From Octopus sinensis (taxonomy: Eukaryota): a DNA stretch of 64,000 bases. The position numbers and the translations under genes are program-made. Shown here in pieces: positions 29,055 to 55,500 of this stretch (position 1 is its first letter; each line of letters opens with the position of its first letter). A model generated the notes under the pieces. It made no database searches. It saw only the letters and a program-made list of their open reading frames with translations, and was not told the DNA's origin. The stretch spans positions 27,528,001 to 27,592,000 of the forward strand of contig NC_043016.1 of assembly GCF_006345805.1 (NCBI RefSeq), in the 5' to 3' direction.

Positions 29055-31503
29055 CATCATCATTATCATCATCATTTAGCATCCGTTTTCCATGCTAGCA
29101 TGGGTTGGATGGTTCAACTGGGGTCTGTGAAGCCGGAAGGCTTCATCAGGCCCAGTCAGATCTGGCAGTGTTTCTACAGCTGGATGCCCTTCCTAATGCC
29201 AACCACTCCATGAGTGTAGTGGGTGCTTTTTACGTGCCACCCGCACAGGTGCCAGACAGAGCTGGCAAACAGCCACGAACAGATGGTGCTTTTATGTGCC
29301 ACCGGCACGGGGGCCAGGCGAGGCTGGCAACGGCCACAAACAGATGGTGCTTTTACGTGCCACCGGCACAGGGGCCAGGCGAGGCTGGCAACGGACACGA
29401 ACAGATGGTGCTTTTACGTGTCACCGGCATGGGGGCCAGGCGAGGCTGGCAACGGACACAAGCGGATGGTGCTTTTACATGCCACCAGCATGGGGCCAGG
29501 TGAGGCTGACAATGGACACGAACGGATGGTGCTTTTACGTGCCACCGGCACAGGGGCCAGGCGAGGCTGGCAACGGACACGAACAGATGGTGCTTTTACG
29601 TGTCACCGGCATGGGGGCCAGGCGAGGCTGGCAACGGACACAAGCGGATGGTGCTTTTACATGCCACCAGCATGGGGCCAGGTGAGGCTGACAATGGACA
29701 CGAACGGATGGTGCTTTTACGTGCCACCGGCACAGGGGTCAGGCGAGGCTGGCAACGGACACGAACGGATGGTGCTTTTACGTGCCACTGACACGGGGAC
29801 CAGGCGAGGCTGGCAGTGGACACGAACAGATGGTGCTTTTATGTGCCACCGGCACAGAGGCTAGACAGGGCAGCGCTGGCAACGACCACGATCGGATGGT
29901 TCGCTTAACCACAGCTGCAATTTCCACTGATGTTGATCGACCTCAATTTTTGTTCTGCTTTCTGATATGTGATTTGATTTGGTTTGATTTTGATTTTGAT
30001 TTTGATTTTGACTGTTCTCACTGGTCTTGCCGGGTCTTCTCATGCACAGCATACTTCTATAGGTCTCGGTCTCTAGTCATTTCCTTGGTGAGACCTAAAG
30101 TTCGAAGGTCGTGCTTCACCACCTCGTCCCAGGTTTTCCTGGGTCTACCTCTTCCACAGGTCCCCTCAACTGCCAGGGTGTGGCACTTTTTCACATACCT
30201 ATCTTCATCCATTCTCGCCACATGACCATACCAGCGCAATTGTCTCTCTTGCACACAACAACTGATGCTTCTTAGGTCCAACTTTTTTCTCAAGGTACTT
30301 ACACTCTGTCGAGTTTGAACACTGACATTACACATCCAACGGAGCATTCTAGCTTCATTTCTTGCGAGCTTAAGCAAATCCTCAGCAGTCACAGCCCAAG
30401 TTTCACTACCATGTAGCGTGGCTGTACGTACACATGCATCATACAGTCTGCCTTTTACTTTGAGCGAGAGGCCTTTTGTCACCAGCAGGGGTAAGAGCTC
30501 TCTAAACTTTGCTTAGGCTATTCTTACTCTAGCAGTTACACTTTCAGCACACCCGCCCCCGCTACTGACTTGGTCACCTAGGTAGCGGAAGCTATCAACT
30601 ACTTCTAATTTTTCTCCCTGGAATGTGGTAGAAGTTGGTCTCTGCATATTTTCAGAGTCTATTGCTCCTGAGCATCTGCCACAGATAAAAACTATTTTCC
30701 TAGTTAGTCTTCCTTTGACATTACTACATCTCTTATGTGTCCATAGCTTACATTTGGTGCATCTTATAGAGTTTCTACCTACGCCTTTTCTACAGATCGA
30801 GCAGGGCCATCTACCTGAAGGCGTTTGTGATTGGTCTACCTTCCTACTTATTAGGACTTTGGTTTTGGCTAGGTTGATTCTAAGGCTTTTTGATTCTAAA
30901 CCTTGCTTCCACACCTGAAACTTCTCCTCCAGTTCTGATAGAGACTCAGCAATTAGAGCAAGGTCATCAGCATAGAGGAGCTCCCAGGGGCAACCTGTCT
31001 TGAATTCCTCCATTATTGCCTGGAGGACTATGATAAATAGGAGGGGACTGAGGACTGAACCTTGGTGGACCCCAACCTCTACCCTGAATTCTTCACTGTA
31101 CTCGATGCCAACCCTCACCTTACTAGCAGCGTCTCTGTACATGGCTTGTACAGCTCTCACTAACCATTCATCTATCCTAGTTTCCTCATTGACCACCAGA
31201 TAAGGGATCGGGGGACCCTATCGAAGGCTTTCTCCATATCGACAAAAGCCAGGTATAGGGGCTTGTCTTTGGCTAGGTATTTCTCCTGCAGCTGTCTTAC
31301 CAGGAAAATAGCATCAGTAGTACTTTTCCCTGGCACGAATCCAAACTGCATCTGATCTAAGGTAACTCTCTCTCTAATTAGTTGGGCTATAACCCTCTCC
31401 GTAACCTTCATTACCTGATCCAGCAGCTTGATACCCCTGTAGTTATTTGTATCTAGGGCGTCACCTTTACCTTTGTAGCAGTTGACCATTATGCTGCTAC
31501 ACC
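29055..31503 (-). mobile_element. 5'-truncated RTE-clade LINE
   Basis: NYRGIKLL, FVDMEKAFDRVPR, GVHQGSVLSPLLF and YADD motifs; one frameshift and one stop; (GAT)n tail; AGAT duplicated at both junctions. Confidence 0.92.
29222..29900 (-). repeat. ~61 bp tandem array (~11 units) in the RTE 3' UTR
   Basis: GATGGT-initiated units recur at 29282, 29343, 29404, 29465, 29525, 29586, 29647, 29707, 29768, 29829 and 29895. Confidence 0.95.
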
Positions 31504-41200: not shown

Positions 41201-41425
41201 CCTTCCAGTTGTCCTTTAAGCTATATGTCCCTTCCTCCTTGTCCTATCTATTATCAGAGGCTTCCAGTAGAATGTCTCTAAATTTCTGTTGGTTTGCTAT
41301 GTCTTTGGGCTTACATAATCTTCTTTTCTTGTGTGGTTTATTTCTCTAAGTCTCTCTAGCACTAACTCTGGAGTCACGATAAACCTGACCATGATAAACA
41401 GTCTCCTGTTGACACAGAGTCACCC

Positions 41426-42415
41426 TTGATTTCTTCCCTGGAGTCGTCCAAACCGAAGGGAACAAAATCGAAGCGGCCAAAGAAGGCGAAGGAACCGGTG
41501 GTCGTTTCTGCACATGATCGTTCCTGTGCGGATTCTTCCTCATCTGCCTTTTCGGTCCCGGAGGTTTCCCAACCTAATTTGAGGAGCGTAGACTCAAACC
41601 CTCCTGAAGACCGTTGTTCTCCCCAAAAGAAGAAACGTAGTCAAAACTCCAGAGGGGCAGATTTGGCTATGAAACCTGATCACGATAAAATCCGTTTGGA
41701 TTCTCCCTCACCTGTCCTTCCCATTAATGCCATTGCTCAACCAATTCTGAACGATCTCGATGGGAGTTCATCTGGGGAGTGGCGCTCCCCCAAACCGAAG
41801 AAGAGGCAGTGCAGTTCCAAACCAGGTGGGAAAATTATGACCACTAAACCCATTCCGATCGACCCCACAGGCCGACATAAGTCCGATGGCTATGAAACCA
41901 CCCTTTTGAAATCCTCCAATGAAGAATCGAATACCACAGCTCATAGTAGAGAACATTTTGCCCACTCAAGATCAGCAATAATTTACGGTAAAGCTGAATC
42001 CACCCGTGATACTGGCATAAACCGCCTAAAAGATGACATTAATTTTGTTTCCATTTTGGTTGGAGAATTGTTCTCTGTGAATGAAAAGGTCAGTGTCCTT
42101 AAGGTCGCTCGGCTAGGAAGATTCCAAGCGAACCCAACCGCAGATACTAGACCACGCCCAATAAGGGTAATCTTTTCTTCTGATCGGGAGGCTTCAGTCT
42201 TTCTGAACAGAGCTCAGACGCATGCCTGGGAGGACCCCAATATGGGTTTTCGCAAGGAATACTCACTAAGAGAGAGAATTCGCCGGAGAAACCTGATATC
42301 CAAACTAAAGATGAGGAAACAAATGGGAGAGAAGGGTTTACGAATCCAAGATGGACAGATAATCAAGTCCTACCTCTGGTCCCATGCTGTAGTGCTGACA
42401 GGGAAAGTGATGTGA
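41426..42415 (+). CDS. LINE ORF1 protein (true start uncertain)
   Basis: 329 codons open; IIYG..ES, RPRPIRV and ER.RRR.L...L..R...GE..L.I..G.I motifs typical of CR1-type ORF1. Confidence 0.8.
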   Translation: MISSLESSKPKGTKSKRPKKAKEPVVVSAHDRSCADSSSSAFSVPEVSQPNLRSVDSNPPEDRCSPQKKKRSQNSRGADLAMKPDHDKIRLDSPSPVLPINAIAQPILNDLDGSSSGEWRSPKPKKRQCSSKPGGKIMTTKPIPIDPTGRHKSDGYETTLLKSSNEESNTTAHSREHFAHSRSAIIYGKAESTRDTGINRLKDDINFVSILVGELFSVNEKVSVLKVARLGRFQANPTADTRPRPIRVIFSSDREASVFLNRAQTHAWEDPNMGFRKEYSLRERIRRRNLISKLKMRKQMGEKGLRIQDGQIIKSYLWSHAVVLTGKVM

Positions 42416-45300
42416 GGGCAAATCGAAGTGAAGTTGATACCCCCGTCAACGATGCTATATCTGATACCCCTTATTCTGCTTGTTCCCCAACTCCCGCCCC
42501 TCAGACTTCACAGCTCAGCATCGTCTACACCAACTCGTGCTCCTTATTCCCAAAGTTCAGTGAACTATTTACACTGGCCATACGTGACTCCCCTGATGTG
42601 ATAGCTATCACCGAGACTTGGCTGACTCCAGCAGTAAAGGACTCAGAAATCCACCTGCAGGGCTACGTCCTTTTCAGATGTGACAGAGGAAAAAGGCGAG
42701 GTGGAGGTGTTGCTGTGTATGTTAAGTCTGACCACAAACCGTCCAACGGTATTCTACCCACTAATGCTCAGCCTACAACAAAATTCGATGCCATCTATTG
42801 CAAGCTGAGCCTATCTGAGTTTTGCCTGCCCGTGTTGGCTGTCTACAGGCCGCCTCTTGCCGACCCCCAGGACGATGCACATTTACTCGAAGCGATAAGA
42901 TTTGTTTCAGCTTCGCATGACTGTTTGGTACTAGGAGACTTCAACGCTCCCACGATCGATTGGCCCGCATCAATTTGTACAACATCTTCCCGGTTCGGCC
43001 AGGCCCTTCTTGACGTGGCTGAAGATTGTTTTCTATCGCAACATGTTGAATATCCGACAAGGCATCGGTCTGGGCAGCAGCCATCTATGCTAGATCTGGT
43101 ATTCTCCCGCTATCCAAGATCAGTGTCAGACGTATCTGTGTGCGCCCCTCTTGCCAAGAGTGATCATGCAGTCCTGAAGTTCGTCATGCACACAACTTTT
43201 TCTGCACCCACGACTACTTCGCTGCCACGTAGAGTCTTCTCTGCAATTAATCTTGAAATTCTAACCGAGGCTTCCGCGCTTCTGGACTGGCGATCCCTGA
43301 TGACGTTGTCCTCAGTTGACGAACTATGGTCATCCCTCAAAGCATATGTAATCTGTTTGACTGACCAGGCAGTTCCCGTTGGGCTTCCCAAGAGGAAGAA
43401 ACACAAGCCCTGGGTGACAAAGAGGGTTAAACGAGAACGTCGACTCAGAGATATTGCTTGGGCTGAATTCAAAAATCTGGATTCGACTGCAGCTTTTGAG
43501 GTGTACAAAACACAACGAGACCGAGCCGTGAAAATCGAAAAGAAAGAACGCTTCAGTTATGAATACAAAATCGCGGCAAATGCCAGTAGCAATCCAAAAA
43601 CCTTCTTTGCCCATGTCCAGCGGAATTCCCGCTTGAACAACCAGATTGCAACGTTGGTAGACTCAACAGGCGTATCGATTGAGGACCCTTATCAACAGAG
43701 TCAATTATTTGTCGAGGCTTTTTCAACTATTTTCAAACAAGATGATGGTCGTGAACCCCCTCCATTTGATAGATCGGTACCTCCAATGCTTCGATTGGTC
43801 ATCACGCGGGACGAAGTCAAACGTGTTATTCAAGGCCTCGATGTCAACAAGTGTCACGGCCCTGACGGCATACACCCACGGGTTATCAAAGCGTTGGCTC
43901 CGGTCATCTGCGAGCCCTTAACGCGACTATTCAATATGTCATTGGCGACGGGTGTTATACCTGCAGACTGGAGAACAGCGATAATCTGCCCAATTTTCAA
44001 GAAAGGGAGCCGCGAAGACCCGCTTAACTACCGACCGGTTTCCCTTACATCAATAATCAGCTAGATGTTCGAAACCATCCTTAAGAAAAGTATGATGCTC
44101 CACCTCCTAAACACAGCCTCTATCTCTGATTCCCAACACGGCTTCATGCCGAAGAGATCATGCTTGACCAACTTACTAGTAATGGAAGAATTGGTGACGC
44201 ACATCCTCGATGATAGTGATGCAGTTGACATTGTTTTACTGGACTTTGCCAAAGCTTTTGACTCGGTAAACCACCGCCTATTACTTGTCAAGCTTCAGGC
44301 ATATAGTTTCCATCCGGATATTGTACGATGGGTTGGTGCCTTCCTCTCAGATCGCTCCTTCCAAGTCCAAGTTAATGGTTCGCGGTCCGACGTCTCCAGT
44401 GCGAGCAGTGGCATGCCTCAAGGTTCAGTGCTTGGGCCCTTGTTGTTCTTAGTCTTCATAAATGACTTGCCCAACGACCTCACGCAACACACCCTTCTAT
44501 TTGCCGATGATATCAAACTGGTCGCTCCTCGCGGTAATATAGAGGATCTTCGTCGATGCCTCCACCAAATTTGGAAGTGGTCTAACGATTGGGACCTGTG
44601 TCTGAACGTGTCAAAGTGCTGTCATCTGCCTGTCGGCTCTACTCCTGCAACTCAACTTGATTTCGAGCCGGGTCGTCTGCTGCTGGAGAGGACCGATCAG
44701 GTAAAGGACCTAGGTATCTTGGTGGATTCCTCCTTTTCGCCTTCGGCCCAGTGCGTCCATGCTGCCAACAAAGCACGCGGAATTCTGTTCTTGATTCGAC
44801 GGTCATTCGGAATGCTCACAGCAGCCATATTCCTACCACTCTATGTCATGCTGGTGAGACCCATATTGGAGTATGGGATTCAAGCCTCTTCTCCTTATCT
44901 CCTCAAAGACATACAGCATCTCGAAAGAGTCCAGAAGCTGGCTACCCGCATGGTTCATGGTCTCAAAAATTTGTCCTACGAAGAAAGGCTGAGGAAGCTC
45001 GACCTTTATTCTCTTGAAAAACGCCGCCGCCGTAGTGATCTCATTCTCGCCCACAACATCATAAGCGGAAAGTGTAACCTCTCGAAAGAGCTGTTCTTCA
45101 CTCCTGCTCCAGAGTGTCGGCTGCGGGGTCATTCCGAAAAGCTCTACCTGCGACGATTTCATCTCAATCGAAGGAGAGGAGCTTTCTCCGTCCGGGTTGC
45201 GGATCCGTGGAACAAGCTGCCAGACGAGATGGTAAAGATGCCGATGACCGCTTTGTTCAAAGCCTCCCTGGACCTCAAGTGGCCTGAACTCTTTACATGA
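42412..45300 (+). pseudogene. ORF2 AP-endonuclease/reverse transcriptase with one in-frame TAG (44062-44064)
   Basis: ITETWL, GDFN, SDH, NYRPVSLTS, LDFAKAFD, PQGSVLGP and FADD; the two ORF-track pieces share one frame. Confidence 0.92.
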
Positions 45301-49570: not shown

Positions 49571-50062
49571 TCTGTGAGAGGATCCATTACAATTGTAGGA
49601 AAAAACATCAATTGAATAACGAAATCAAAGAGAGGTTATCTTCATTACTTAGGAAAATAACCAGAGATGGTGATAGAAAGAGAATCCAACAAGATCTAGT
49701 GTTAACAACAAACAAGATGAGGACAAATATCCGTCAACTGAAAATAATGTAAATAATGTACATAATTCCTCATCTCTTAAATATAGAACTGTTTGTTTGT
49801 TATTCCACAGAATAAAGGAGAAACATCCTTAATCTAATGTAGGATCATCTCAAAAGTATGTTCACTAATATAGATGTAGGAGTGGGTGTGTGGTAAGTAG
49901 CTTATTTACAAACCACATAGTTCCAGGTTCAGTCCCACTGCATGGAACCTTGGGCAAGTGTCTTCTACTATAGCCTTAGGTGACCAAAGCCTTGTAAGTG
50001 GATTTGGTAGACAGAAACTGAAAGAAGCCCGTCATATATATGTGTGTATATATATATATATA

Positions 50063-51196
50063 CTAGCAGCATAGCCCAGCGTTGCCCAGGTATGTAAGAG
50101 CCCCTAGTAGGCAACAACTAATCCCAATCTAGTCCTTTCCCTCTAGGGAACGAAGGCGCATGTGTAGGTTGCAATGTCTTCTCTTCACTCCCAAATAACT
50201 ATCAAACAGCTATTGATAATTCAACCCAACCAATTCCTACCAGGAAGAAATTACATTCAAGACTTTCTGCTAATAGCTGCTGCAGCCGCAAGTTATTCGG
50301 ATACTTTTTTTGTTTAAACTTTCTTTATAACTACCACCCCAAACGTTTTACCTTAAATTTTTGACATACCCTAAGGGTCCTCAGATGCTACTTGCAAACT
50401 CTTGGTTTATTATAAACTGCTTTTGTCGTGTGCACCAAAAAACCTTTTCTATTCGTTTGTTCAGTTTGGTCACTTTTGACTTTTTCGTTGTTGTCACTCA
50501 CATTGCTGCCTGCTTTTTTGCCGTTTTTGTATATTTTTATACATTTTGGGATACTTACTCCACGTGTTCCGAGAGTTAAAAAGGTCGAGTTGCGTCCCCT
50601 AGACTGTCTGTGGTTTGTGTTTAATACACAAATCGGTTTGCTATGTGTGCCACATATGATTTAATTAACCGATTTTTTCCAGTAATAAAGTATCCTATTG
50701 GAATAAAAAGGGCCATATAGCTCCTTGGAGCAGACATGATGCTCGCTGTGAATTTTTAAAAAATTCCTGCCGATTTATGAAAGATATTGTCGAAAATATG
50801 TCATCTTGAATTTGAACGCGATTTCCTAAAATGGCATGATTTTATCGATTTTTTCTGATGGTAAGGTATTGCATGGAAAACTAACGTCAGAATTAAGTTT
50901 CTTAGGGTAACATTAAGCTTCACCATGAGTTTGGTGAAAATCGATTGCAAGTTGTGAAAACTACAACAGAAAATGCGTTGCATATAAAAAGCTTAGATTC
51001 TCGACCCCATGTCGAATTTATCGATTTTTTCAGAACTCGGGGAACTTTTCAAAATTTTCGCTACGTTAGTTTTGAATTATGACATTGGGATATGTGTGTG
51101 TTAAGTTTCATCAGAATCTCAGAATCGGTTGAAAGCCGTGGTCAGGGTGAGGGTACAACTTGACAGACACACAGACGCACAGACAGACAAACTGCC

Positions 51197-51205
<9 letters not shown>
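50063..51205 (-). mobile_element. Helitron-like element
   Basis: A|CTAGCAGCATAGCCCAGCGTTGCCCAGG end resembles 22877; other end (CAGA)n...ATTTATATATAT. Confidence 0.7.
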
Positions 51206-51240
<35 letters not shown>

Positions 51241-51492
51241 TACAAATAAGGATGAAGTTTTTTTAAAGAAAAAATTCCATCAAAAAATGTGGCAGCATAT
51301 TAAAATACCTTTAAGGTTAAAATTATAAACAACTTATAAATAAGGGCTAAAGAAAATGATTTCTATGCCAATATGCTGATAACAGATTTTTAAATCATCA
51401 ATTTCCACATATTATTTACTCATTACAGAAAACACGTAGAGCTGAAAATGAGGAAAGCCAGCCAATAGAATTTTTTTAAAAAGCTCGTTATT

Positions 51493-51551
51493 CCTATATT
51501 AAATCAATTTTGGAATTAATCTCATAATAGATTTTTTCCTCTTCAGTAGAA
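51493..51551 (-). ncRNA. Hammerhead copy with a GAAA>AAAA core mutation
   Basis: Reverse complement of 51993-52052 with a few changes. Confidence 0.6.
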
Positions 51552-51992
51552 AATATGAAAAGAAATTCTATTGGCTGGCTTTCCTCGTTTTCAGCTCTAC
51601 GTGTTTTCTGTAGCGAGTAAATAATATGTGGAAATTGACGATTGAAAAGTCTGTTATCAGCATTTTGGCATAGAAATCATTTTCTTTAGCCCTTATTTAT
51701 AAGTTGTTTATAATTTTAACCTTAAAGGTATTTTAATATGCTGCCACATTTTTTGATGGAATTTTTTTCTGTAAAAAAACTTCATCCTATATTAGTAGTA
51801 AACTTATTACTATTCGCTATAGGGACTGGTAACCACTATAAGCTGTAGTGGAGAACAGTTCACACGTGTGCTGAGGCTGACCAAAGGATTTTATTTTTAG
51901 ATATATCTGGGGTACTTATATGTACTCATGATTTTTGCTTTGGCTTTTTTCCATGGGTGCATGTAAGTATCTTATTTATGTCTTTTTGTATT

Positions 51993-52052
51993 TTCTACTG
52001 AAGAGGAAAAAATCTATTATGAGATTAATTCCGAAATTGATTCAATATAGAA
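51993..52052 (+). ncRNA. Type-I hammerhead ribozyme
   Basis: UUCUA CUGAAGA GGAA-[AAAAUCUAUUAUGAGAUUAA]-UUCC GAA AUUG-AUU-CAAU A UAGAA: all three stems and an intact core. Confidence 0.85.
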
Positions 52053-52203
52053 TTAACGAATTTTTTAAAAAAATTCTATTTCCTTGTTTTCAGCTCTACA
52101 TGTTTTCTGTAGTGAGTAAATAATATGTGGAAATTGACGATTTAAAAGTCTGTTATCAGCATATTGGCATAGAAATCATTTTCTTTAGCCCTTATTTATA
52201 AGT

Positions 52204-52299
<96 letters not shown>

Positions 52300-52504
52300 T
52301 GTGTGTGTGCGTGTATGTGTTTGTTCCCCCAACATCGCTTGACAACCTATGCTGGTGTGTTTACGTCCCCGTAACATAGCAGTTCAGCAAAAGAGACCAA
52401 TAGAATAAGTACTAGGCTTACAAAGAATAAGTCCTGGGATCAATTTGCTCGACTAAAGGCAGTGCTCCAGCATGGCCACAGTCAAATGACTGAAACAAGT
52501 AAAA

Positions 52505-53070
52505 GAGAATATCTGTATCAAATTTTGATACAAGTTAACAAGTCCAATAGAAATATTATTATGAAAATTAATTCCATGGTCTTTCAATAAAAAATATATA
52601 GCTGCTAACAGGTTTAAGAGATTTCACTCTTTATGACTTCACTCTCTCTATGTTTAATTTGGAAGCAGTTTTCTAGCCATCTGGGTGTATCTGGTTGAAA
52701 GTATTCCAAAATGTTTTCTGATAAGTGCTGGTAATGGATTTCAAAACATGACCATTTGCTATAGATTCTTAGTTTAAACAGAGTGCACATGAATGTCCCA
52801 CGAGCTATGTATTTTGTTTTTATTTATTGCTTTATTCATTCATGTCGTTCAGTTCTGGGTAGAAAGGACTGTTGCATTTTCTGAATTTGATATTTCTTAC
52901 GGGTTGTGAAAGGTTGGCCTCAAAGGGTTGTGAAAGCCTATTTATTGGTGGCCAGTTATTTGATTTAAAACCAAATTCGAAGCTATTTCTAGAATATTCT
53001 TCTTGTTTATCAAAGTAATAGGCTGCCACCTCAGTCTTTTAATAAAGTTGTTAGCCTTCTGTCTGAATTA
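52505..53070 (-). pseudogene. Penelope-like element ORF remnant (N-terminal to RT)
   Basis: FGFKSNNWPP...FEANL...NIKFR matches my recollection of the PLE ORF motif fGfks..pp....FE.dl...ni.Fr. Confidence 0.6.
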
Positions 53071-54387: not shown

Positions 54388-55500
54388 TTCACTACCCACA
54401 AGAGACCACTGTTTCACTACCCTTTTCTACATCATCATTGTTTAAGTACTCACACTACACCACCACTGTTTAACTACCTGCACTGGACTACCATTGGTTT
54501 ACCACCCACATTATTCCACTCCTTCACTTTCCTAACTATATGCCTGTTTCACTAGTGACACTACATCACTGTTTCAGTACCCACACTCCATTGTTTCCCT
54601 ACATACACTGCACCACCACTTCACACTACAGCACCACTGTTTCACTAACCACTCTACAAAACCACTTTTTCGCTATTCCCACTACACCATCATGTTTCAT
54701 TACCCACACTACACAACCACTGTTTTCACTACCCACACTAGACCACCATTGATTTACCACCCACATTACACCACTGCTTCACTTCCCAAACTATACTCCT
54801 GTCTAACTAGCGACACTACACCATTGTTTCAGTACCCACACTACAACTCCCTTGTTTCACTACCACCAATACACTACCACTGTTTTACTCCCCATGTTGC
54901 ACCAACACTGTTTCATTACCCACATAACATTGGCACTGTTTCACTACCTACACTACACAACTGATTCAATACCTGCAATAACGAATGTTCTGCTACCTAC
55001 ATTACACCAACATGGTCTGTGTAGATACAGTACACAAATAGACCAATACCCACAATACCACAGTTTCACAACCCAAACCACACCACCAGTACTACACACA
55101 TTACACCTGCATTTATTACTACCCTACTGCAGCACTGTTTCACTACCTACACTACAGCAGCATTGTTTCAATACCCACAGTACACCACTACTGTTTCATT
55201 AGCAAAAATACACCACCACTGTTTCACTACCGACACTACACAAACCACATTTTCATTACTAACACTGCATCAGCACTGCTTCACTATCCATATTACAGCC
55301 TGTATCGATACCTACAATATCCCATTGTTTCACCACCCTACTTACACCACCACTGATTCACAACCAACACTGCATGACCACTGTTTCACAACATTGTTCC
55401 ACTATCCTCACTACCCCACCACTTTTTTGCTACCCACACTACAATACACTATTCTTTCTGTATTCACACTACACAACTGTGCCATTACCCACACTACATC
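54388..55500. repeat. Degenerate ~28 bp CAC/ACT-rich minisatellite
   Basis: Recurrent CACTGTTTCACTACCCACACTACAC. Confidence 0.8.

Follow-up and report, generated by a model that had tools for sequence, protein, structure and literature searches.

Layout of the hammerhead element

We analysed a 64,000-nt stretch of the Octopus sinensis genome (NC_043016.1, positions 27,528,001 to 27,592,000; hereafter the window, from whose first nucleotide all positions are counted). An element flanked on both sides by (TA)n tracts occupies positions 51238-52205 (Table 1), and no open reading frame of at least 100 aa, counted from stop to stop, overlaps it, in agreement with a preliminary description of this DNA that had seen no coding capacity here. 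The period of ~510 bp given in that description was recovered as well, since the segment 51559-51583 recurs 508 nt downstream; a second direct repeat (51580-51712 and 52079-52211, 95% identity) has a spacing of 499 rather than 508 nt because 9 bp are absent from its second copy. The palindrome, described as having arms of ~235 bp, has arms at 51258-51477 and 51559-51778 (220 nt, 95% matched, loop of 81 nt), which BLAST widens to 51238-51476 and 51560-51800 (~239 bp). The direct and inverted arms of the element overlap by ~4 nt at 51563-51566, and the inverted arm, whose outer end at 51238 is start site 2, extends past the junction between units and through a hammerhead copy that is broken.

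Table 1. Features of the hammerhead-bearing element and its flanks (positions in the window)
Feature	Position	Strand	Remarks
Left (TA)n target tract	51199..51240		From sequence; (TA)3+ at the far end in 33 of 42 inverted-arm copies
Inverted arm, ~329 nt	51238..51566	-	Unit 1-241 and 419-511 on the minus strand
Broken hammerhead copy	51492..51551	-	AAAA in place of GAAA; stem III with C>T
Direct arm, 643 nt (1.27 units), terminating at start site 1	51563..52205	+
One full 508-bp unit, family A	51563..52070	+
Two inferred RT start sites with the 93-nt "tail", internal copy	51698..51800	+	Site 1 at ~51707, site 2 at ~51800
Splice-donor-like GTAAGT	51963..51968	+	35 nt upstream of the hammerhead core
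Intact type I hammerhead	51993..52052	+	Core nucleotides, covariation; predicted cleavage after A52047
Repeat of the unit start with 9-bp deletion, terminating at site 1	52071..52205	+
Right (TA)n target tract	52206..52268		From sequence

The complete hammerhead that had been noted near the junction is present with all core nucleotides. An inverted ribozyme copy had also been described, and it exists as sequence (51453-51566 against 51978-52091, 89% identity), but it is broken by the two changes listed in Table 1, leaving the window copy with a single intact ribozyme, on the plus strand; the locus is not "active" by the rule of Li 2026 (bioRxiv 10.64898/2026.07.22.740005), which asks for two consecutive complete hammerheads. 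Since the inverted hammerhead is broken, the window locus alone cannot release a monomer, and, considering that it has one intact ribozyme and that its own repeats are ~5% divergent, it most probably represents an old, dead-end product.

Copy number and sister families

A search of the genome with the unit of the window (family A) gave 3116 first-look candidates, 40 of which were scored, and the longer matches were 86-96% identical. An exact hammerhead pattern gave 126 matches and 0 in the reversed control. Since ~11 of the ~100 listed matches to site 2 (see below) adjoin one of these 126 hammerheads, these results suggest, as a rough estimate, that family A comprises in the order of 10^3 insertions. 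The copies are dispersed and ORF-less, as anticipated for a non-autonomous, hammerhead-bearing element, and both independent and circularly permuted tandem copies, which the preliminary description had proposed as a check, were found. Most family A loci contain <1.5 units and are not long arrays; the monomer of one tandem locus (L002) is 506 nt with 31% GC. Two intact ribozymes one unit apart occurred at 3 of 197 loci, and these 197 loci held 9 same-strand hammerhead pairs.

Three sister families, B (~478 bp), C (488 bp) and D (468 bp), are 69-80% alike and likewise ORF-less. Family B (G000:C1:207479329-207479799, i.e., L100:5380-5797, and L179-L206) is 69-78% like the window unit, gave 3900 first-look candidates and has the same two ends as family A. 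Families C and D (L207-L211, L334-L350) share the architecture of family A, and in the family C copies examined the customary G10.1-C11.1 pair of the hammerhead is missing. One further loose-end motif, beyond families C and D, gave 0 matches. Among about 250 loci of families A-D the longest array was ~2.3 units, a figure that collapse of arrays in the assembly may have lowered. The GTAAGT upstream of the hammerhead is present in all four families (55 of 71 family A copies), and among 100 spans none lacked the putative intron as a spliced copy would.

Ends of the copies and pairing of the arms

The ends of the copies were located from two anchors. Of the 126 hammerhead matches, 90 loci were used, and 82 of these enter (TA)4+ within 330 nt, the tract being reached at 140-179 nt past the cleavage site in 39 and at 240-279 nt in 32 (71 of 90 together). 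Copies therefore end ~170 and ~260 nt downstream of the predicted cleavage site, at two sites 93-94 nt apart, a distance that exceeds the usual Penelope tail length of 30-40 bp. These positions, together with truncation that ignores the cleavage site (see below), give no support to the earlier claim that the copies are defined by self-cleavage. The second anchor was site 2, for which 103 matches gave 87 analysed loci after exclusion of duplicates, of loci already included and of 3 unlisted matches. An inverted arm terminating at site 1 was present in 37 of the 87 and a short site-1 stub, scored by a looser motif test, in a further 18; the arm terminates at another position in 6, a site-2 stub occurs in 1, and 25 have no inverted piece. 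The far end of the inverted arm commonly lies in TA repeats (Table 1). The window locus obeys the same rule, its inverted arm ending at site 2 and its direct arm at site 1; L021, in which both arms terminate at site 1, is a counter-example. BLAST overlaps at the junctions, used to look for microhomology, ranged from -36 to +9. Four family A copies (L004, L041, L043 and L140) show an added (GTA)n stutter between site 2 and the TA tract, which suggests slippage at priming.

Taken as insertions, the copies display 5' truncation, partial tandems, an inverted 5' copy, a microsatellite or AT-rich target and two fixed 3' ends with the tail on one end only, all traits of the Penelope type. In the Penelope-like element (PLE) system of Frangieh 2024 (PMC11167929), a protein is described that cleaves the two DNA strands and extends them, using two internal RNA starts that define the tail. 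By analogy with that system, the region 51698-51800, whose sequence is strongly conserved across the sister families, may provide paired RT start sites. The arrangement is the two-start "tail" signature of Penelope elements, and what was described as an "inverted cap" with a Penelope-style terminus most probably represents a second arm of cDNA, terminating at the other start site. The published descriptions of EN+ PLEs that we cite (Craig et al. 2021, bioRxiv 2021.04.23.441226; Poseidon PAc, PMC11167929) have in common with the family 5' truncation, partial tandems and an inverted 5' copy, AT-rich or (TA)n targets, and a one-ended tail from two internal starts downstream of the hammerhead. In contrast to those elements, the unit has no RT/GIY-YIG ORF, its tail is 93 nt rather than 30-40, and its start region is AT-rich, whereas theirs is an AC-rich stem-loop inside the ORF.

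A predicted dimeric hammerhead

The hammerhead is composed of stem I (TTCTA/TAGAA), CTGAAGA at 51998, stem II (GGAA/TTCC), GAAA and a palindromic stem III, and the segment 51998-52047 carries all hammerhead core nucleotides. No hammerhead was among the 28 Rfam matches at E<=1, and an unconstrained fold of 51975-52075 formed stem II with hammerhead stems I and III absent (z -0.37); the identification of the ribozyme is thus based on its core nucleotides and on covariation. The core was intact in 43 of 60 family A hammerheads at loci chosen without regard to the ribozyme. In a set of 21 hammerheads chosen from the four families (14 pairs, 294 cells), 98% of cells were paired and 9 of the 14 pairs showed two-sided changes, compared with 20-54% of cells paired in slid controls, counts that represent few independent events since the four families are related.

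Stem III is a 5-bp palindrome around a single unpaired base. Its innermost pair, which is unable to close in a monomer, is A-U in 58 of 60 family A ribozymes and G-C in 27 of 29 family B ribozymes, and the predicted energies are +1.8 kcal/mol for the hairpin and -6.7 for the self-duplex. From this palindrome the hammerhead is predicted to act as a dimer, and the substitution pattern suggests that selection favours the dimeric ribozyme, in the mode of Cervera 2014 (PMC4209133). The dimer-type metazoan type I hammerheads described there (Cervera & de la Pena 2014) share the palindromic stem III, predicted to be unstable as a hairpin and stable as a self-duplex; compared with those descriptions, stem III here is longer (a 5-bp palindrome rather than 1-2 bp) and its innermost pair covaries A-U/G-C between families.

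Truncation of the arms and co-stopping

Truncation was scored in 100 arms, with the loci left out of the 87-locus set put back. Results showed steady 5' truncation of ~0.005 per nt and a mean arm of ~194 nt; 42 of the 100 arms reach the cleavage site and 33 go past it. Stops within 20 nt of the cleavage site numbered 9, where 8.0 were expected, and 2 of the 42 fell within 5 nt. An impression that 5' ends cluster at the cleavage site, which came from a biased set, is ruled out by these counts. A pile-up marking a transcript start upstream of the ribozyme was likewise absent, the rate being flat in 90 copies. Since both profiles are flat, copying is not limited by a cleaved 5' end, nor by the start of a transcript.

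Divergence inside one insertion was 3.6% (19 tandem pairs) and 4.4% (25 inverted pairs), compared with 9.4% between loci, and minor variants held in common inside insertions numbered 49 (tandem) and 95 (inverted), nearly private ones 9 and 10. This likeness fits one template read repeatedly, either circular or a long multimer of homogeneous units. Of the 36 copies with two arms, 18 have arms that end no more than 20 nt from each other on the template, while 20,000 permutations gave a mean of 5.5 and a maximum of 14. Among these 18 copies the site-1 arm leads in 12, ties in 2 and lags in 4. We infer that two polymerases travelled along a single RNA; alternatively, the co-stopping may have arisen by snap-back or when palindromes were remodelled at a later time. 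In contigs assembled from 4 sequencing runs guessed to be RNA, 27-29 of 29 unit bins were covered, and those of three runs extend over the junction between units; since this junction is also present in DNA, such contigs say nothing on expression or circles.

Search for an autonomous partner

The genome contains 5029 GIY-YIG PLE candidates, 150 of which were scored. Using an A-C profile, unit homology in the termini of 86 PLE loci, a small sample of the 5029, was confined to bystander copies. In a tblastn search, PLE fragments lay near 4 of 197 loci (L009, L108, L123 and L124) and belonged to different families without a common junction. One PLE family (L100:174-4958; L161-L175) has two ORFs, of 479 aa and of 781 aa (RT and GIY-YIG), and is young, its copies being mostly 97-99% alike. 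Its two ends lie 40 nt apart in (TA)n, with 25 of 36 rows at one site and 8 of 36 at the other (some loci are duplicated), and it bears a hammerhead-like motif with the core TTGATAA. Judged by its behaviour alone, it is a candidate mobiliser. A link between this PLE, the dominant one, and the unit by way of L100 was rejected: L100 holds a bystander family B copy, which is absent from 16 further PLE stretches save L176, a duplicated neighbour of L100. We also rejected as partner links a 21-23 bp unit match in L056, which sits inside an unrelated insertion, and a GC-rich PLE beside L108, which has its own 3' end.

Class of the family and proposed mechanism

The unit, in which an RT and GIY-YIG ORF is absent, is not an autonomous PLE. 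It has a type I hammerhead, is non-coding with 31% GC and forms two-hammerhead tandems; by these traits the family is a non-LTR retrozyme, putatively a non-autonomous PLE, a class already known, and retrozyme versus Penelope is, in the text of Li et al. (2026), not an either/or choice. With a probability of about 0.85, we consider that this ORF-less, hammerhead-bearing 508-bp family was copied into (TA)n by the RT/GIY-YIG enzyme of a PLE. In the accounts of animal non-LTR retrozymes cited here (PMC7229834; bioRxiv 10.64898/2026.07.22.740005), a non-coding low-GC unit, a type I hammerhead, head-to-tail repeats and PLEs alongside are common features. The 508-bp unit falls within the 51-972 bp of Li 2026 and is larger than the 150-450 bp of Cervera & de la Pena 2020 (PMC7229834). 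In contrast to those retrozymes, family A mostly has <1.5 units per locus, is known here from DNA alone, has no matching pLTR among the 86 PLE loci, and possesses fixed paired ends, a feature absent from the cited portions of both descriptions. Cervera & de la Pena 2020 describe mussel retrozymes in a text where "cephalopod" occurs 0 times, and the text of Li 2026 names no mollusc among its 35 genomes, while its supplementary tables could list related families. A literature search of titles and abstract starts found none describing family A or a cephalopod retrozyme; Repbase or Dfam may already catalogue the family. Relative to the portions of the literature cited, the 93-nt tail, the co-stopping arms (18 of 36) and the covarying dimer-only base pair are new.

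In the mechanism that we propose, the enzyme would cut both strands of a TA tract, each DNA end would prime cDNA at one of the two internal RNA sites, and the two cDNAs would be joined head to head to give the palindrome. The template would be a circle, formed by dimer-dependent self-cleavage of transcripts from the rare two-ribozyme loci and subsequent ligation; we lean slightly towards such a circle, which would yield arms of more than one unit without a fixed 5' end. A bolder version, which we offer tentatively and hold to be rather doubtful, is that the four families are ribozyme circRNA parasites copied by two convoyed Penelope RTs on one circle, primed on both sides of a (TA)n break at sites 93 nt apart. 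The fossil record of such a convoy would be the arms with opposite ends, the co-halting arms with site 1 slightly ahead, the lack of a fixed 5' end and the dimer-only pair under selection, and retrozyme circles would then be tied directly to the Penelope tail mechanism. Several observations weigh against the preferred reading, namely the lack of an autonomous element with the unit among the 86 PLE loci, the long tail, the scarcity of loci with two intact ribozymes together with arrays of at most ~2.3 units, the arms of L021, the missing Rfam hammerhead, and the report of cleavage in only 1 of 9 frog dimers tested (Li 2026, in the text cited).

The rival closest to this reading differs from it in the template only and otherwise overlaps with it: the same Penelope mobilisation would act on an uncleaved linear multimer from a long tandem master locus, with the hammerhead a passenger or acting elsewhere. 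Arms pass the cleavage site freely, as such a template would allow, and in vitro insertion was unaffected by hammerhead mutants, cleavage being dispensable in that assay (Frangieh 2024, in the sections cited); yet no array beyond ~2.3 units is known from the A-D loci, assembly collapse being conceivable, no 5' pile-up marks a transcript start, and the hammerhead stems covary across families, and we consider a linear multimer a serious though less than even prospect. Should the template instead be a linear monomer cut at both ribozymes, the self-cleaved monomer of the preliminary description, with tandems arising by template jumping, 5' ends should pile up at the cleavage site. Four loci (L002, L011, L020 and L311) do start within ~11 nt of it, but the set containing the first three is biased, its query having begun 23 nt past the cleavage site, and the flat truncation profile largely refutes this improbable template.

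Two further rivals concern the nature of the element itself. The copies could be 5'-truncated pLTR ends of an ORF-bearing Penelope, as the preliminary description had allowed as its own refutation, and both the insertion architecture and the PLE fragments near four loci agree with this; against it, long copies span from site 2 to the next hammerhead without an ORF, and the nearby fragments come from families with their own termini. This explanation, very unlikely in general, is refuted at the 197 sampled loci. Inverted arms in a TA context would also be expected of a DNA transposon of the fold-back or MITE-like kind, bounded by long terminal inverted repeats, but the ends differ in sequence (site 1 at one, site 2 at the other), the arms form a continuous range of lengths, and no inverted piece is present at 25 of 87 loci, making such a transposon scarcely credible.

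On the route of retrozyme integration and the use of circular templates by PLEs, circular templates were proposed by Cervera 2014, hammerhead cleavage was dispensable for insertion in vitro in Frangieh 2024, and Li 2026 call the mechanism unresolved. With its short ORF-less unit, high copy number and clean paired ends, the family provides insertion-level support for mobilisation of a retrozyme by PLEs; it delimits a ~100-nt cis signal and allows a direct circle-versus-linear test. The system itself is not new, and its value is as a clean natural data set on retrozyme integration.

Other repeats in the window

The element has repetitive neighbours on both sides. Positions 50061-51199 hold another element bounded by TA tracts; it has internal repeats of ~176 bp and one (CAGA)-rich end, and presumably resembles non-autonomous Helitron-like elements. 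At 52320-52506 lies a SINE-like repeat, which we take to resemble octopus SINEs and which is frequent beside many of the family loci examined. A degenerate minisatellite of 25-28 bp occupies 54388-54978. Further upstream, an RT and PHD fragment lies on the minus strand at 30513-31217, and a LINE-like element at 41366-45300 has endonuclease (PF14529/PF03372) and RT (PF00078) frames with one in-frame stop between them.
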